DNA from: a phage
DNA length: 64,000 nucleotides
Assembly: GCA_025611195.1 (NCBI GenBank)
Contig: GCA_025611195.1_4718.1
Strand: one strand, 5' to 3'
Below, piece by piece: positions 12,528 through 60,730 of the stretch. Within the stretch, counting starts at the first letter, position 1, and every line of letters starts with the position of its first letter. The translations under genes and the position numbers were made by a program. The notes beneath the pieces were generated by a model. It was not told the origin of the DNA and did no database searches. It saw only the letters and a program-made list of their open reading frames with translations.

Positions 12528-12553
12528 ACGCAAAAAAAAAAGATTGTACGGTT

Positions 12554-12585
12554 CCCTCCTCCAACCCGTAAGGGAAGGAGGAGGG
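12554..12585. terminator. palindromic hairpin element CCCTCCTCC-AACCC-GTAA-GGGAA-GGAGGAGGG between convergent genes, A10 run on plus side
   Basis: perfect 9-bp stem plus inner CCC/GGG; conserved family. Confidence 0.6.
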
Positions 12586-12600
12586 TTATGACCGCGGTGG

Positions 12601-56259: not shown

Positions 56260-57138
56260 TTAAACGTGGGTCAGGTCACCGTGACGTGAAACGAACTCTG
56301 ATAACGCTCGGGTTGCTTCTTTGGATTCTTCAACCATCGGGAAGTTTGTGGTAACAAGTTCTCGTAGGACAGGAATGATTTCATTATCTTCGAGATCGGA
56401 AGCTAACGCGAATGCGATCAGTTCTTGGGCGTACGCATACGGCTGCTGACGTAATGCGGCAAGCTGATTCCGACACTGCGACATTAGCAGGTCCAGTGGA
56501 ACCGCTATTGTACCCCCTTCATCAATATACTGACCGAATACCGGTGGGAACGCATCGCTGATTACACGAATTCGTCGACGGATGCGATCAGGAATCTGGA
56601 CGTTTTCTTCGTCGGCGATATTTTCGCTGTCTTTCTCCAGCTTCTTGGTTAACACCTGCTGGATACGTGGGAGCAAGCTTGAATGCACGAAACTGATTAA
56701 TGATGCTACGTCCACAGCATCGACACCGTAAATATAACGCGTGCATTCCGCTAGCGTTTCAGCTGCGGTGTAGTCTTCATCTTCAACGATGGCGAGTAGA
56801 AAAGCGGTATCGTCGTGTGTTTCCAGGTCTAATAACGTAGACGTCAACGCATGAAGATATTTCAGGCTATCCAAAGATAGTTGCCCTTCGTTAACTCGGA
56901 TCCCGAAGGCAAGCAGTTGTTGTTTATAAAGTTCGATACATCCGTTTGTTAAAATGATATCGAGTTCGTTTAAATCGTATTGTTCCCCAGCACCTGACAA
57001 CATCGTACTACAAAACGTTTCCAGTTGCTCGCATTTAAAATCTTGGTATAAACGATGCATGCAGTGCTGTAACAGCGTACGCCTTGTTTCAGGGATCTTA
57101 CCTTCTAACAAAGCCAAGACGGAATCAATCATATCCAC
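56260..57138 (-). CDS. hypothetical protein (292 aa)
   Basis: ORF directly upstream (in transcript sense) of RNAP fragment gene. Confidence 0.65.
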   Translation of the reverse strand: MDMIDSVLALLEGKIPETRRTLLQHCMHRLYQDFKCEQLETFCSTMLSGAGEQYDLNELDIILTNGCIELYKQQLLAFGIRVNEGQLSLDSLKYLHALTSTLLDLETHDDTAFLLAIVEDEDYTAAETLAECTRYIYGVDAVDVASLISFVHSSLLPRIQQVLTKKLEKDSENIADEENVQIPDRIRRRIRVISDAFPPVFGQYIDEGGTIAVPLDLLMSQCRNQLAALRQQPYAYAQELIAFALASDLEDNEIIPVLRELVTTNFPMVEESKEATRALSEFVSRHGDLTHV

Positions 57139-57228
57139 TCCGATGCGGTAAATGTCTACTAGCTCTCATAATCTATTGAAGAAACTACCAGCTTACGCCA
57201 ACTTAGATTAATCAGGAGTAACCATCCC

Positions 57229-57702
57229 ATGCCAGTTTCATCCAAACCAAGAAAAAAATCAGTAGGAAAACCTAAAGCTCAGGAAACAACAGCGATTCGT
57301 TGGGACGAGTTACGTGAACCTATCGAAAACTGCGAATTGTTATTAGGCACCCTGGGTGCGGCTATTTACCAGGCAACACAACCTTGCCGTTTACGATTAA
57401 CCCAAAACAAGCGTGATGAGTTCGTTGCGTTATCAACAAGCACGAATAAAGATCTGACCGAACTTCAAACCGAGTTGACGACGATCAAGAACTCCATTAC
57501 GCCGATGTATGGTAAAGAAGTCGACGAACAAAGTATTCTGTTACAGTACAACTACGGGATGTCGTTAATGAACATCCTGGAACGCGCATCCGATATTCTG
57601 CGTCCTGACGTTGCACGCCTGAGCCAACTGCGTGTTGAAGGGATGGAGAACCAGATTCGATTCGCCAACAGTGTTAAATCTCAAGGAGCCACCGAAGCAT
57701 GA
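57229..57702 (+). CDS. hypothetical protein (157 aa)
   Basis: ORF, 4-nt overlap with following gene. Confidence 0.6.
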   Translation: MPVSSKPRKKSVGKPKAQETTAIRWDELREPIENCELLLGTLGAAIYQATQPCRLRLTQNKRDEFVALSTSTNKDLTELQTELTTIKNSITPMYGKEVDEQSILLQYNYGMSLMNILERASDILRPDVARLSQLRVEGMENQIRFANSVKSQGATEA

Positions 57703-59357
57703 GCGAACAAGAAAAAGATGTCGTGACGAATCAGGAAGCCACCGAGCGTTCAGAGTCGTCCGTTGAAACTACGATCCCAGCAAGTGAGGGTAAAGACGAA
57801 GCCGTCGCTACCGAAGGAGAGGTAGCGGCTCCAGAAGCAACCCGTGAAGAAGAACCATCACATCCACCGCTGGTTGATTTCTCGAAGGCGACGATACGTT
57901 TCCAATGCGAAGACATTCGTCCTAAGAGTCCGAAGAAAACAAAACGTCAGCCGTTGGTGTTACCGCTGTATTCTCCGCGTGTACAGACAGCGTATTACAA
58001 GGAATACATCAACGAAGCAATGGATACCGTGCAAGCCATTGTCGCTCAACGCGGTAAGCCTTCGGACGAGCAATTTGATAAATTCAGTAAAGCGGTAGTG
58101 CAATCGGTTGCTGATGGGCAATACCAACCGCGCGGGCCAGCTCATGATCGTGCGTTGGAGCGTAAGGGCAGTCAGTGGACTAACGTACCCGTAGACTCAT
58201 CGGGCGTTGGTCGTGTTATTCCTGGCATCCCACAACCGAACCATATTCCTGATGATGTCGAAGCGCCGCTGACAGGAACCGACGCAATCTATTTTGCAAT
58301 CCGCAATACGAAATCGGGCGCACCTGCGGTAATGCCGTTATGGCATAGCGGTATTAAGCTGCAGTTCAATCCACCGTCAAATGAACGTGTCGCAATTATG
58401 CATGAACGTATTGCACGCGATAAAATCCTGGGTGGGCGTGATAGTACCGGTTTCCTGTTTTCGGCAACCTCGATTATCACCATGAAGCACGCAATCGAAT
58501 TAGCATTAGAATGCTGTTACATGGCCAACGTACCGAACCTGGATATCCAGCGTTTGAAAGACATTATCCCGGTTACCGATGTTCCGGCACTGTTGTTGAA
58601 CGTGCTGGTAACCATGTACCCGTACGGGTATCCTTACGTGCAGACCTGCTATCAGAATCCAGAAACCTGCGACTATCGTGTTGAAGATACCGTAAGCTTT
58701 GCGAAGCTCTATCAAGTTGACAACAGCGCAATTACCAAACGTATGCGACAGATCATGACCGAAGGTCCGGTCATGACCGATGAACTTTTGCGTGAGTATG
58801 CGAACGAGCTGGGCGAAACAAACTCCCGTACGCTGGATCTGTCTGACAACGGTTCGGTTATCATTGAGCTTGAAGTACCGAAGATTTCACGTCAGATCGC
58901 CATGGGCGAACGCTGGTTAAGCGATACACTGGAAGATCTGCGTGATATTCTATCGCGTCCGTCAATGACCGAAGAAGAGCGTGATCGTGTTATTCGTGAG
59001 CGTCAGTTCTATAGCTGGATGCGTCAGTATGATGCGTGGATCAAATCGATGCATGTGTCGGTAAACGGTACCATGCGTCGTGTAAGCGATGCAGATACGG
59101 CAACGGTATTAGCACAGCTGTCTCGTGACAGCGACCTTCGTGAACGCTATATCGATGGGCTGATGCAGTTCATCGGTGATTCGACGATTGCGCTCGCAGC
59201 GATGCCTGCCTGGAAATGTCCGAAATGTAATACCGATATTGCTGACAATCTGCGTGACCAGAAATACTACGATCTGATTGCTTTGGATGTACCCCAGCTT
59301 TTTTTTACCCTAAACTCCGTCCAATCTCTTCAGGAGGGGATGGACGCGGTATTCTAA
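57699..59357 (+). CDS. hypothetical protein (552 aa); 3' end contains U-UUU-UUU slippery heptamer and may be extended by -1 frameshift
   Basis: long ORF; T8 run at 59299-59306 in X-XXY-YYZ register; -1 frame open from the run into 59420-59779. Confidence 0.7.
   Translation: MSEQEKDVVTNQEATERSESSVETTIPASEGKDEAVATEGEVAAPEATREEEPSHPPLVDFSKATIRFQCEDIRPKSPKKTKRQPLVLPLYSPRVQTAYYKEYINEAMDTVQAIVAQRGKPSDEQFDKFSKAVVQSVADGQYQPRGPAHDRALERKGSQWTNVPVDSSGVGRVIPGIPQPNHIPDDVEAPLTGTDAIYFAIRNTKSGAPAVMPLWHSGIKLQFNPPSNERVAIMHERIARDKILGGRDSTGFLFSATSIITMKHAIELALECCYMANVPNLDIQRLKDIIPVTDVPALLLNVLVTMYPYGYPYVQTCYQNPETCDYRVEDTVSFAKLYQVDNSAITKRMRQIMTEGPVMTDELLREYANELGETNSRTLDLSDNGSVIIELEVPKISRQIAMGERWLSDTLEDLRDILSRPSMTEEERDRVIRERQFYSWMRQYDAWIKSMHVSVNGTMRRVSDADTATVLAQLSRDSDLRERYIDGLMQFIGDSTIALAAMPAWKCPKCNTDIADNLRDQKYYDLIALDVPQLFFTLNSVQSLQEGMDAVF
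59299..59306 (+). other. homopolymeric T8 tract / candidate -1 programmed ribosomal frameshift or slippage site
   Basis: 0-frame codons CTT TTT TTT ACC; -1 frame has no stop until 59779. Confidence 0.4.
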
Positions 59358-59419
59358 TCGATCCGCGATACGGGTTACACGACGGACAACTTGTTCGTAA
59401 TGATGAAAAAATCTGGGAA

Positions 59420-59779
59420 TTGCTGTTAGCGCGTAAAGGCGACGGTGGCATGAAGCTGAACATCGAAATGGGTATTGCGTACGACACCATGTTTGGCTTG
59501 TACGATCGTGTTAACGACTGGACGCCGCTGAAATGGGTTGCTCAGCATCCCGCTGAAGATCCCTGGGACAGATTAGGGATTAAGCCCTTAATCGAAGATT
59601 ATGTTCGATTCGGTATTAAAGAGTTCATGACGCTGGATGCGTTTTTACAAGCACCGTATCCTTACGCGCAAACGGTACTCAAAATCGCACAAGACGAACT
59701 GCGGAAACGTAGTGCGGTACTGGACGACGATGAGGACAAGTTACGACGAGAAGAAGAACGTTTACGAAACGGAAAATAA
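59420..59779 (+). CDS. ORF in -1 frame relative to 57699-59357: either frameshift extension of that gene or a separate small gene with weak initiation signals
   Basis: annotated start is TTG; first ATG (59450) lacks a good SD; frame is open upstream across the T8 run. Confidence 0.4.
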   Translation: MLLARKGDGGMKLNIEMGIAYDTMFGLYDRVNDWTPLKWVAQHPAEDPWDRLGIKPLIEDYVRFGIKEFMTLDAFLQAPYPYAQTVLKIAQDELRKRSAVLDDDEDKLRREEERLRNGK

Positions 59780-59780
59780 A

Positions 59781-60290
59781 ATGGCGAGATTTACCAGTTT
59801 GATTGGGTTGGATATTTGGGAAACACCGGCTGACGTTCGGGTTATTCCTGTCAACACCGTCGGTGTGATGGGGCGCGGTCTTGCCAAACAGGCAGCAGAT
59901 CGCGTGCCCGGTCTTCTTGAAGCGTACCGTAAGCAGTGTCAAGATGGGTTTAAGGTGGGTGAAGTCGTATCGTATCAGCATGGCGATAACGATCAACTCA
60001 CCTACGTGTTGTTTCCATCAAAATCGGATTGGCGTGAAAGAACACGACGCGAGTATATCGTTAACGGCTTACTGGCGTTAAAAGCATGGTTATTGGAGCT
60101 TCAGTTCGAAAGAGACGGCTTCTCATACCAGCGTCCGGCTGAACCGCTGATTGTCGCAATTCCTCCGGTCGGTTCTGGTTGCGGTAATATCGGTTACGGA
60201 CAATCTGAAACAATCCAGCCTCAATGGGTACGCGCACAAATCAAACAGTATCTTGCCACCGTACCGAACGTTCATTTCTACTTGTTCTAA
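59781..60290 (+). CDS. macro-domain-like protein (putative ADP-ribose binding/hydrolase, TARG1/DarG-like), ~169 aa
   Basis: VIPVNTVGVMGRGLAKQAADRVPG resembles N-x-x-G-x-M-G-x-G-[IL]-A macro signature; LIVAIPPVGSGCGNIGYG...W..V...I resembles the second glycine-rich loop; ATG at 59781 right after upstream stop. Confidence 0.55.
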   Translation: MARFTSLIGLDIWETPADVRVIPVNTVGVMGRGLAKQAADRVPGLLEAYRKQCQDGFKVGEVVSYQHGDNDQLTYVLFPSKSDWRERTRREYIVNGLLALKAWLLELQFERDGFSYQRPAEPLIVAIPPVGSGCGNIGYGQSETIQPQWVRAQIKQYLATVPNVHFYLF

Positions 60291-60306
60291 TGCACAGATA
60301 GCATAA

Positions 60307-60338
60307 CCCTCCTCCAACCCAACAGGGAAGGAGGAGGG
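60307..60338. terminator. palindromic hairpin element CCCTCCTCC-AACCC-AACA-GGGAA-GGAGGAGGG between convergent genes
   Basis: identical to copy at 38148-38179. Confidence 0.6.
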
Positions 60339-60355
60339 AATATGTTGCTTTGCTA

Positions 60356-60730
60356 TTAATGTTCGTTCCAGATGGCATCTTCCGGTGGAACAATAGGATC
60401 TTTCTTCGGCATTGACGGTACTTCATGACGATGCTTACGGAATTGCCTATCGATAACCTCACGAAGCCGGTACGCATCAACCCACGTTGATTTATTGAAC
60501 AGCTCCAACGTCACAGTTAACCGCGTTCTTGACATTGAATAGCTTTTCTTTGCAATCAAATCGGGATAATTCAGTTGAGCGAACCATGCCCGTATTTGTG
60601 CTTCGGTAAAAGCGATGCTGTAATAACTAAGTTTACCGTCATTAAAATCGTGCGCGTGGGTGTAACGTCCAGCGTAACGCCAAACAAGATGCACATTCAG
60701 ATCTATCCATGGTGGGGTGGTATCAGCCAT
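60356..60730 (-). CDS. hypothetical protein (124 aa)
   Basis: ORF. Confidence 0.55.
   Translation of the reverse strand: MADTTPPWIDLNVHLVWRYAGRYTHAHDFNDGKLSYYSIAFTEAQIRAWFAQLNYPDLIAKKSYSMSRTRLTVTLELFNKSTWVDAYRLREVIDRQFRKHRHEVPSMPKKDPIVPPEDAIWNEH

Follow-up and report, generated by a model that had tools for sequence, protein, structure and literature searches.

A probable −1 programmed ribosomal frameshift in core gene cg18 of nucleus-forming jumbo phages

The 64,000-nucleotide (nt) stretch of phage DNA analysed here (contig GCA_025611195.1_4718.1, hereafter the window) belongs to a close relative of Escherichia phage Goslar, with which it shares 95.3% nucleotide identity over positions 57000-60400. 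Goslar belongs to the nucleus-forming jumbo phages of the family Chimalliviridae. A run of eight thymines (T8) is located at 59299-59306 close to the 3' end of the plus-strand gene at 57699-59357, which encodes a protein of 552 amino acids (aa) and which we identify, by homology over most of its length and by synteny, as the Chimalliviridae core gene cg18. The T8 run is likely to act as a −1 programmed ribosomal frameshift site from which two isoforms of 552 aa and 693 aa would result.

Architecture of the slippery site

The cg18 open reading frame (ORF) of the window is the orthologue of Goslar gp081 and phiKZ gp77. Its product is 96.6% identical in aa sequence to Goslar gp081 and about 24% identical to PHIKZ077, and matches phrog_4585 (E = 4.6e-67). 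The orthologues Goslar gp081, phiKZ gp77 and RAY gp267 represent the core gene cg18, while the ORF downstream of it is missing from the chimallivirus core-gene list (PMC10299810, Table S3).

In frame 0 of cg18 the codons around the run read ...CAG CTT TTT TTT ACC CTA... (PQLFFTL), which places the heptamer T_TTT_TTT at 59300-59306 in the exact X_XXY_YYZ register, with the P-site codon TTT at 59301-59303 and the A-site codon TTT at 59304-59306. The second TTT is separated by 16 sense codons from the frame-0 stop TAA at 59355-59357. Between 59258, 43 nt ahead of the first TTT, and its stop at 59777-59779 the −1 frame is open, and the first ATG, GTG or TTG after the run is TTG 59420 (codon +38), followed by ATG 59450 (codon +48). 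A −1 shift would exchange the last 16 residues for 157 new ones, resulting in a protein of 693 aa (536 + 157) instead of 552 aa. The sequence-only reading of this DNA is borne out by these details, since it had noted the T8 run in X-XXY-YYZ register near the end of the gene at 57699-59357, a −1 frame open from the run through the ORF at 59420-59779 with only a TTG or a poor ATG as start, an extension of about 158 residues, and a fused product directly upstream of a macro-domain gene.

The predicted −1-frame extension comprises 157 codons at 59306-59779 on the plus strand (YPKLRPISSGGDGRGILIDPRYGL...RLRNGK) and would form the C-terminal part of the 693-aa trans-frame product. Its first part, at 59306-59357 on the plus strand, is a dual-coding overlap in which frame 0 specifies the tail of the short isoform (TLNSVQSLQEGMDAVF*) and frame −1 would specify the linker of the long isoform. 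The junction peptide of the trans-frame product is predicted to be YYDLIALDVPQLFFYPK, and the predicted peptides encoded in the gap between the two annotated genes are LRPISSGGDGR, GILIDPR, YGLHDGQLVR and IWELLLAR. The predicted trans-frame equivalents of phiKZ are ...STFFYFGGLEVKPDGVVNDLR and LEATFTEDSGHILHPNFGYDK.

The T8 run is the sole run of at least eight thymines in the window, while about 1.6 such runs are expected per 64 kb. As a lone T8 lies within chance expectation, its significance rests on the comparative data.

Conservation of the site and of the two-frame arrangement

The loci compared comprised 34 loci from IMG/VR, those of phiKZ, Noxifer and Goslar, seven loci of the Goslar clade and nine further named isolates, and the comparison draws on about 45 orthologous loci. 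The orthologue set spans G+C contents of 25-59%, and its proteins are typically 20-30% identical to the query. The 552-aa protein was found by tblastn in 160 phage records, PHIKZ077 included; word-indexed protein searches with the 552-aa gene retrieved six close relatives only. The first ~60 residues of cg18 (window 57699-57880) are acidic, of low complexity and highly variable among the orthologues in both length and sequence, and this N-terminus swamped the word-indexed protein search.

Among the closer relatives, the T8 run is identical in the independently sequenced Goslar genome and in phages with 51-87% aa identity. The same run and the same frames were detected in two 100%-identical metagenome contigs as well as in a Salmonella-associated contig and further assemblies with 86-87% protein identity. 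Three relatives at 51-55% identity keep the 24-nt string TTTTTTTTACCCTAAACTCC(G/A)TCCA and the −1-frame peptide YPKL(R/H)P...

At the level of the family, a Phe-Phe pair is found 8-37 codons before the frame-0 stop at every usable locus with the exception of one isolate with Phe-Leu. The site has the form N_TTT_TTY, the preceding base being T in 23/30 loci and G in 7/30, and the U_UUY tetramer in codon register is invariant in all orthologues but one, which has U_UUG. The sole Phe-Leu orthologue is that of Erwinia phage pEa_SNUABM_54 (locus L048, near position 2800); its DNA reads GTT TTT TTG, and a T7 run and U_UUU_UUG are kept. The length of the run varies from T8 in the clade of the window and T7 in most lineages to T6 only (T_TTT_TTC or G_TTT_TTT) in many lineages and T5 in the Noxifer group (GAG TTT TTC).

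The first Phe codon is TTT in 29/29 lineages despite a preference for TTC elsewhere in most of these genes (for example, 0 TTT versus 14 TTC, 0 versus 12 and 1 versus 15), and −1-frame stops between the site and the frame-0 stop amount to 0 in 28/28 lineages. Under the assumption of independent lineages, which is generous though synonymous sites are saturated at such divergence, the log10 P values for the retention of TTT sum to about −15.6 over the lineages, and the lack of −1-frame stops has a P of about 1e-19 as calculated from the −1 stop density of each gene.

At every usable locus the −1 frame also contains the gene annotated next. In 35/35 loci from IMG/VR, phiKZ and Noxifer the −1 frame is open from 5' of the Phe-Phe pair to 136-170 codons beyond the frame-0 stop, and the same arrangement is present in the seven loci of the Goslar clade and in the nine further named isolates. 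Across the family loci this frame is free of stops over 13-304 nt before the site and over 150-179 codons past it, while the +1 frame remains open for 1-86 codons past the frame-0 stop (at most 25 codons in 29/35 loci). The closest upstream −1 stop is located just 13 nt before the site in several lineages, which confines the frame change to a stretch of ~45 nt. Within this stretch, the sole invariant slippery element is UUU_UUY.

The downstream reading frame as a probable part of cg18

In Goslar the downstream ORF is annotated as gp082 (109 aa), which corresponds to 59450-59779 on the plus strand and appears to be an N-terminally truncated gene call. The preceding stretch at 59358-59449 on the plus strand, which is annotated as intergenic in Goslar, is coding sequence of the −1 frame, with TTG 59420 as its first canonical start. 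According to its substitution pattern this stretch evolves like a −1-frame coding sequence: 13/17 and 8/12 substitutions relative to relatives of 86-87% identity, and 2/2 relative to Goslar, are located at third positions of the −1 frame. It also contains the conserved motif G(I/H/A)(L/I)(I/V)(D/N)Px(Y/F)GL.

The extension is homologous to Noxifer gp072 and, at all orthologous loci, to the peptides read in the −1 frame, and the alignment of these peptides revealed the motifs GHVxxxxFG(L), AYxxxFGI, PLxxVxxHPxED and GxSxxEFLxxP. Neither ATG nor GTG nor TTG occurs between the slip site and the first of these motifs (GHVxxxxFG) in 22/28 lineages. The first motif of the window, GILIDPRYGL, occupies codons +13 to +22 ahead of the first TTG (+38), and in phiKZ the first start codon is found only at +86 of the 165 extension codons. 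The extension furthermore matches phrog_12109 (E = 1e-8), its residues 57-146 being aligned with positions 48-140 of the 147 positions of the profile, and consequently the first 47 profile positions fall upstream of any start codon available in the window.

The annotated starts of the downstream "gene" are scattered from extension codon 18 to 83, with ATG, GTG, TTG and once CTG as start codon, and the corresponding database proteins are 80-182 aa long. The CTG start was used by the annotators of Ralstonia phage RSL2 (locus L053, position 2580), which implies that no normal start was available there. In the AT-rich phiKZ the 218 nt annotated as intergenic between PHIKZ077 and PHIKZ076.4 (locus L004, 4411-4628) lack a −1-frame stop. 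They encode VVNDLRYSRL...GHILHPNFGY, which is homologous to the peptides of Noxifer and other phages, and PHIKZ076.4 (80 aa) represents merely the last half of the extension domain. The downstream "gene" (Goslar gp082, PHIKZ076.4, Noxifer gp072) is therefore best read as the 3' part of a recoded cg18 and not as a separate gene.

Two loci from the same sample series (L045 and L046) differ by an indel close to the extension ORF's 3' end, resulting in gene calls of 128 aa and 150 aa, respectively. This is probably an assembly or strain difference.

Proposed mechanism and two isoforms

Most ribosomes would read CUU UUU UUU ACC in frame and terminate 16 codons later, releasing the 552-aa protein with its short conserved C-terminal helix. 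A fraction of the ribosomes would slip back by one nucleotide on U_UUU_UUU with tRNA-Phe in both the P and the A site; alternatively, only the A-site tRNA may be involved, the slip then being confined to the U_UUY tetramer. In the −1 frame the slipped ribosomes would then translate a Pro/Ser/Gly-rich linker followed by a conserved helical domain of ~120 aa with a long terminal helix, and the long product would consist of residues 1-536 and 157 new residues (693 aa). The outcome would be two isoforms with a common N-terminal body and different C-termini, the ratio of which would be set by the efficiency of the slip. We infer that the ribosome rather than RNA polymerase is the slipping machine and that both isoforms are functional; the local hairpin described below may have a role in the shift.

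The frame-0 tail following the Phe-Phe pair is conserved as FFxLxxx(R/K) across the loci, while the −1-frame reading of the overlap yields a poorly conserved Pro/Ser/Gly-rich linker. Orthologues with one continuous ORF, as considered by the sequence-only reading, were looked for: a continuous in-frame fusion was detected neither at any locus nor among 16 homologues in 1.84 billion representative proteins. The lack of a natural fusion together with the conserved frame-0 tail speaks for both products having been kept and for the arrangement being maintained rather than resolved, which suggests that both the short and the long isoform are needed.

The motif itself is compatible with frameshifting in bacteria, as only A_AA.G exceeds U_UU.Y among the shift-prone tetramers of E. 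coli and heptamers of the type H_HH.U_UU.Y, including U_UUU_UUY, are among the most efficient ones (PMC4066793). A candidate 3' stimulatory hairpin is located at 59316-59344 on the plus strand, 9 nt past the heptamer, with the stem formed by UCCGUCC (59316-59322) and GGAUGGA (59338-59344). This 7-bp hairpin has a fold z of −2.1 to −3.0 and lies in the 6th percentile of windows from the same gene. A second hairpin is predicted at 59345-59366. Locus L039 has CUCCAUC/GAUGGAG at the position equivalent to the first hairpin, and per-locus folding predicted own hairpins at equal distance from the site in a few other clades.

The loop and the 3' flank of the first hairpin coincide with AGGAGG at 59332-59337, which is followed 2 nt on by an in-frame ATG (within 59332-59342) inside the last codons of cg18. 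This element was considered as the Shine-Dalgarno (SD) sequence of a non-canonical start or as a stimulator, and was rejected in both roles since it is not conserved in the relatives at 51-55% identity. It is probably not a functional ribosome-binding site.

Several points weigh against programmed ribosomal frameshifting at this site. The Phe-Phe pair is kept as protein sequence, the conservation of the T-run is thereby partly forced, and only the synonymous positions carry independent weight. For these positions, an explanation by the amino acids alone was rejected on account of the TTT codon being retained against the codon bias, and it is also countered by the Phe-Leu isolate, which keeps T7. 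Furthermore, U_UUU_UUU was found to be far less shift-prone in E. coli than A_AAA_AAG (PMC5009743), and given this weakness the slip efficiency may be low. In the seven lineages with G_TTT_TTY the re-pairing of the P-site tRNA would be imperfect. With respect to stimulatory elements, the consensus fold of the Goslar clade is weak and without covariation, a family-wide 3' structure was not detected across 33 lineages in comparison with the same-gene background (Wilcoxon p = 0.23 and 0.73), and Rfam gave no match. Finally, no proteomic record of the junction was found in the text supplements of the Goslar virion paper.

A conserved SD-like sequence upstream of the site was not seen across the loci, either. 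By analogy with T7 gene 10 the stimulator of the cg18 frameshift may be distant, or it may not be an RNA structure at all. A frameshift independent of any mRNA structure, with stimulation in trans or by the nascent chain, or with slippage of the phage polymerase on T5-T6, appears improbable. A phage-encoded ribosome-binding factor could act as the stimulator in this case, as could the conserved (I/V)P(L/I)D-x4-FF peptide while in the exit tunnel; alternatively, the unusual multisubunit RNA polymerases of these phages could slip on runs as short as T5-T6. Under stimulation in trans or by the nascent chain, the infection state would fix or regulate the proportion of the two cg18 isoforms. On this improbable reading the hidden C-terminal domain could also be a core part, so far not counted, of the machinery for replication or transcription in the phage nucleus.

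Alternative explanations

The sequence-only reading had left it open whether the two ORFs are joined by a −1 frameshift or by transcriptional slippage, and a joining of this kind is supported by the conservation of the run, of the frame and of the missing start in the orthologues. In the case of transcriptional slippage, RNA polymerase, either that of the host or one of the phage's own multisubunit enzymes, would stutter on the A-run of the template, and the one U added to some of the mRNAs would give exactly the −1-frame reading and the same 693-aa product. The T8 run in the clade of the window and T7 in most lineages speak for this possibility, as does the observation that UUUUUUU is prone to transcriptional slippage (PMC4066793). 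Since it needs no 3' RNA stimulator, the absence of a general one would be immaterial. However, efficient slippage in bacteria has been described for runs of ~9 A or T (PMC5009743), and the runs of cg18 are shorter than this and not conserved in length, with T8 here and T5-T7 in most of the family. The lineages with T5-T6 retain the whole arrangement, and the invariant part is U_UUY in codon register, which corresponds to the requirement of tRNA re-pairing. Taken as the sole mechanism transcriptional slippage hence seems unlikely, although it is conceivable in the T7-T8 clades and may add to the yield of the long isoform in the T8 clade.

The possibility of two separate genes, the downstream protein being initiated at TTG 59420, at ATG 59450, at a non-canonical codon or by termination-reinitiation and the T-run doing no more than encode Phe-Phe, agrees with the annotation in every GenBank record of the locus that we inspected. 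A weak AAGG precedes ATG 59450, in one lineage (L017) the conserved motif is preceded by an ATG equipped with an SD sequence, and the model of the extension folds as a domain of its own. Nevertheless, separate initiation is regarded as very unlikely, since conserved motifs and substitutions biased to third positions occur upstream of the proposed starts, 22/28 lineages have no canonical start before the first motif, and the use of the first start in phiKZ would remove half of the domain. The orthologues hence present the opposite of two independently initiated genes, most of them lacking a start before the conserved part. Reinitiation would also leave unexplained that the −1 frame is free of stops before the frame-0 stop in all lineages, that this frame holds the downstream ORF without exception and that TTT is kept against the codon bias.

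Homopolymer runs are error-prone, and one extra T would fuse the two frames of cg18, so that an error in run length or a recent frameshift mutation in one continuous gene (a pseudogene) had also been considered by the sequence-only reading. The T8 run and the frames are identical in Goslar, in the Salmonella-associated contig and in several metagenome assemblies, though, and the two-frame architecture is present in all ~45 loci from independent projects, with no continuous fusion and with a conserved frame-0 tail. Owing to this conservation in Goslar and across the family, a sequencing error or a pseudogene can be rejected with near certainty.

Comparison with known recoding systems

Among the known systems compared, the closest parallel to cg18 in mechanism appears to be gene 10A/10B of phage T7. 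In T7, and by our reading in cg18, the −1 shift takes place on a U-rich Phe site close to the ORF's 3' end, the product is a C-terminally extended isoform sharing the whole N-terminal body, and a strong hairpin immediately 3' of the site appears to be lacking in cg18 as in T7. The site of T7 gene 10 is G_GUU_UUC, used by bacterial ribosomes, and its stimulator was reported to be located ~200 nt downstream (PMC5009743). The G_UUU_UUC variant of the Noxifer group is close to this motif. Unlike T7 gene 10, cg18 belongs to an unrelated family and does not encode a capsid protein, its extension of ~157 aa is a conserved domain of its own, and the site, known here from sequence, is kept throughout an entire virus family whose hosts and G+C contents differ widely.

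As proposed for cg18, the G/GT genes of phage lambda and of many tailed phages use a conserved −1 shift near the 3' end of a gene, which adds a second domain to some of the molecules. Annotators routinely miss this tail assembly chaperone frameshift. Its position and two-ORF architecture are conserved even in the absence of sequence conservation (PMC5009743). In contrast to G/GT, cg18 is located between the genes of a virion RNA polymerase and a helicase and not beside a tape-measure gene, encodes 552 aa instead of a small chaperone and employs a U-rich motif.

The tau and gamma products of bacterial dnaX resemble the proposed cg18 isoforms in sharing a common N-terminus and in arising by −1 shifting at a homopolymeric heptamer. 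The longer dnaX product is the frameshift product in some bacteria, and in Thermus transcriptional slippage is used (PMC5009743), which parallels the slippage alternative for cg18 discussed above. However, dnaX relies on A_AAA_AAG, on an SD-like element before it and on a stem-loop 3' of it, no conservation of any of the three was seen at cg18, and cg18 shows neither sequence nor domain similarity to dnaX and has no P-loop.

The fusion of two overlapping ORFs by −1 programmed frameshifting is also known for OrfAB of IS3/IS911, and U_UU.U_UU.C and U_UU.Y tetramers are among the motifs used by insertion sequence (IS) elements (PMC4066793). Unlike these, cg18 is not part of a mobile element, and no structure like the pseudoknots or three-way junctions needed in IS elements was detected here by per-locus or consensus folding.

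Predicted properties of the products

No significant match was found for either part of the protein, singly or as a profile, in sequence searches against Pfam, NCBIfam and PDB. The sole hint was a sub-threshold match to a YgiT-type zinc finger at the CPxC motif near the C-terminus of the common part; the C-terminal region of cg18 contains this zinc-ribbon-like CPxC motif as well as the conserved FFxLxxx(R/K) tail, and for the frame-0 tail beyond Phe-Phe a helical structure is predicted. The model of the 552-aa part, calculated from an alignment of seven sequences, was unusable with a model confidence (pLDDT) of 34. The extension was modelled as all-helical with a pLDDT of 74, including a long terminal helix with values above 90 for residues 90-157. 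No fold match to this model was found in PDB, and in BFVD it matched uncharacterised chimallivirus proteins only.

Gene neighbourhood and further features of the window

A virion RNA polymerase subunit is always encoded near cg18, which in phiKZ and Noxifer has a helicase gene in its vicinity as well. The conserved neighbour is annotated as "RNA polymerase beta subunit" in the records of Goslar, phiKZ and Noxifer, while Goslar gp081 and gp082 are both labelled "hypothetical protein".

In the window the extension ORF is directly followed by the macro-domain gene. In the Goslar record this gene begins with the ATG that corresponds to 59730, which results in a 50-nt overlap with the extension ORF. 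ATG 59781, one base past the TAA of the extension (59777-59779), leads to a 169-aa product with a Pfam Macro match, which is the form reported by gene callers in relatives. We regard ATG 59781 as more likely to be the start than ATG 59730 (window 59730-60290).

Two other homopolymer runs, an A10 run (12532-12541) and an A9 run (1266-1274), are located just past the stops of plus-strand genes at convergent gene ends. The A10 run is followed by the inverted repeat CCCTCCTCC...GGAGGAGGG (window 12528-12590), resembling a bidirectional terminator hairpin. Neither of the two runs is a recoding site.

Implications for the nucleus-forming phages

Nucleus-forming jumbo phages are intensively studied and are used in phage therapy. 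A set of 72 core genes with cg numbers, cg18 among them, was defined by Prichard et al. for the chimallin-encoding (nucleus-forming) jumbo phages, including phiKZ, PhiPA3, 201phi2-1, Goslar and RAY, and a later paper arrived at 68 unique core genes. A description of the cg18 frameshift was not found in the literature on jumbo phages, phiKZ and Goslar structures, the core genome (PMC10299810) and recoding, and none of the GenBank records inspected has ribosomal slippage annotated at the locus. Very probably, the comparative data point to recoding that is deeply conserved and has gone unrecognised in one of the core genes of this much-studied phage family.

If so, every published genome of the family mis-annotates the locus as two hypothetical genes, the second of them with an arbitrary start, and knock-down, transposon or CRISPR interference (CRISPRi) data on "gp082 / gp76.4-like" genes would concern an isoform of cg18. 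The recoding field would gain a deeply conserved case of frameshifting on U_UUU_UUY in viruses of bacteria, at a site which persists across hosts from Vibrio to Pseudomonas and G+C contents of 25-59%, apparently without a common RNA stimulator. Forms restricted to the short isoform (TTC TTC) or to the long isoform (one additional T) would provide a simple handle on the function of cg18. The extension domain of ~150 aa would represent a hidden core coding region that is not on the core-gene list.

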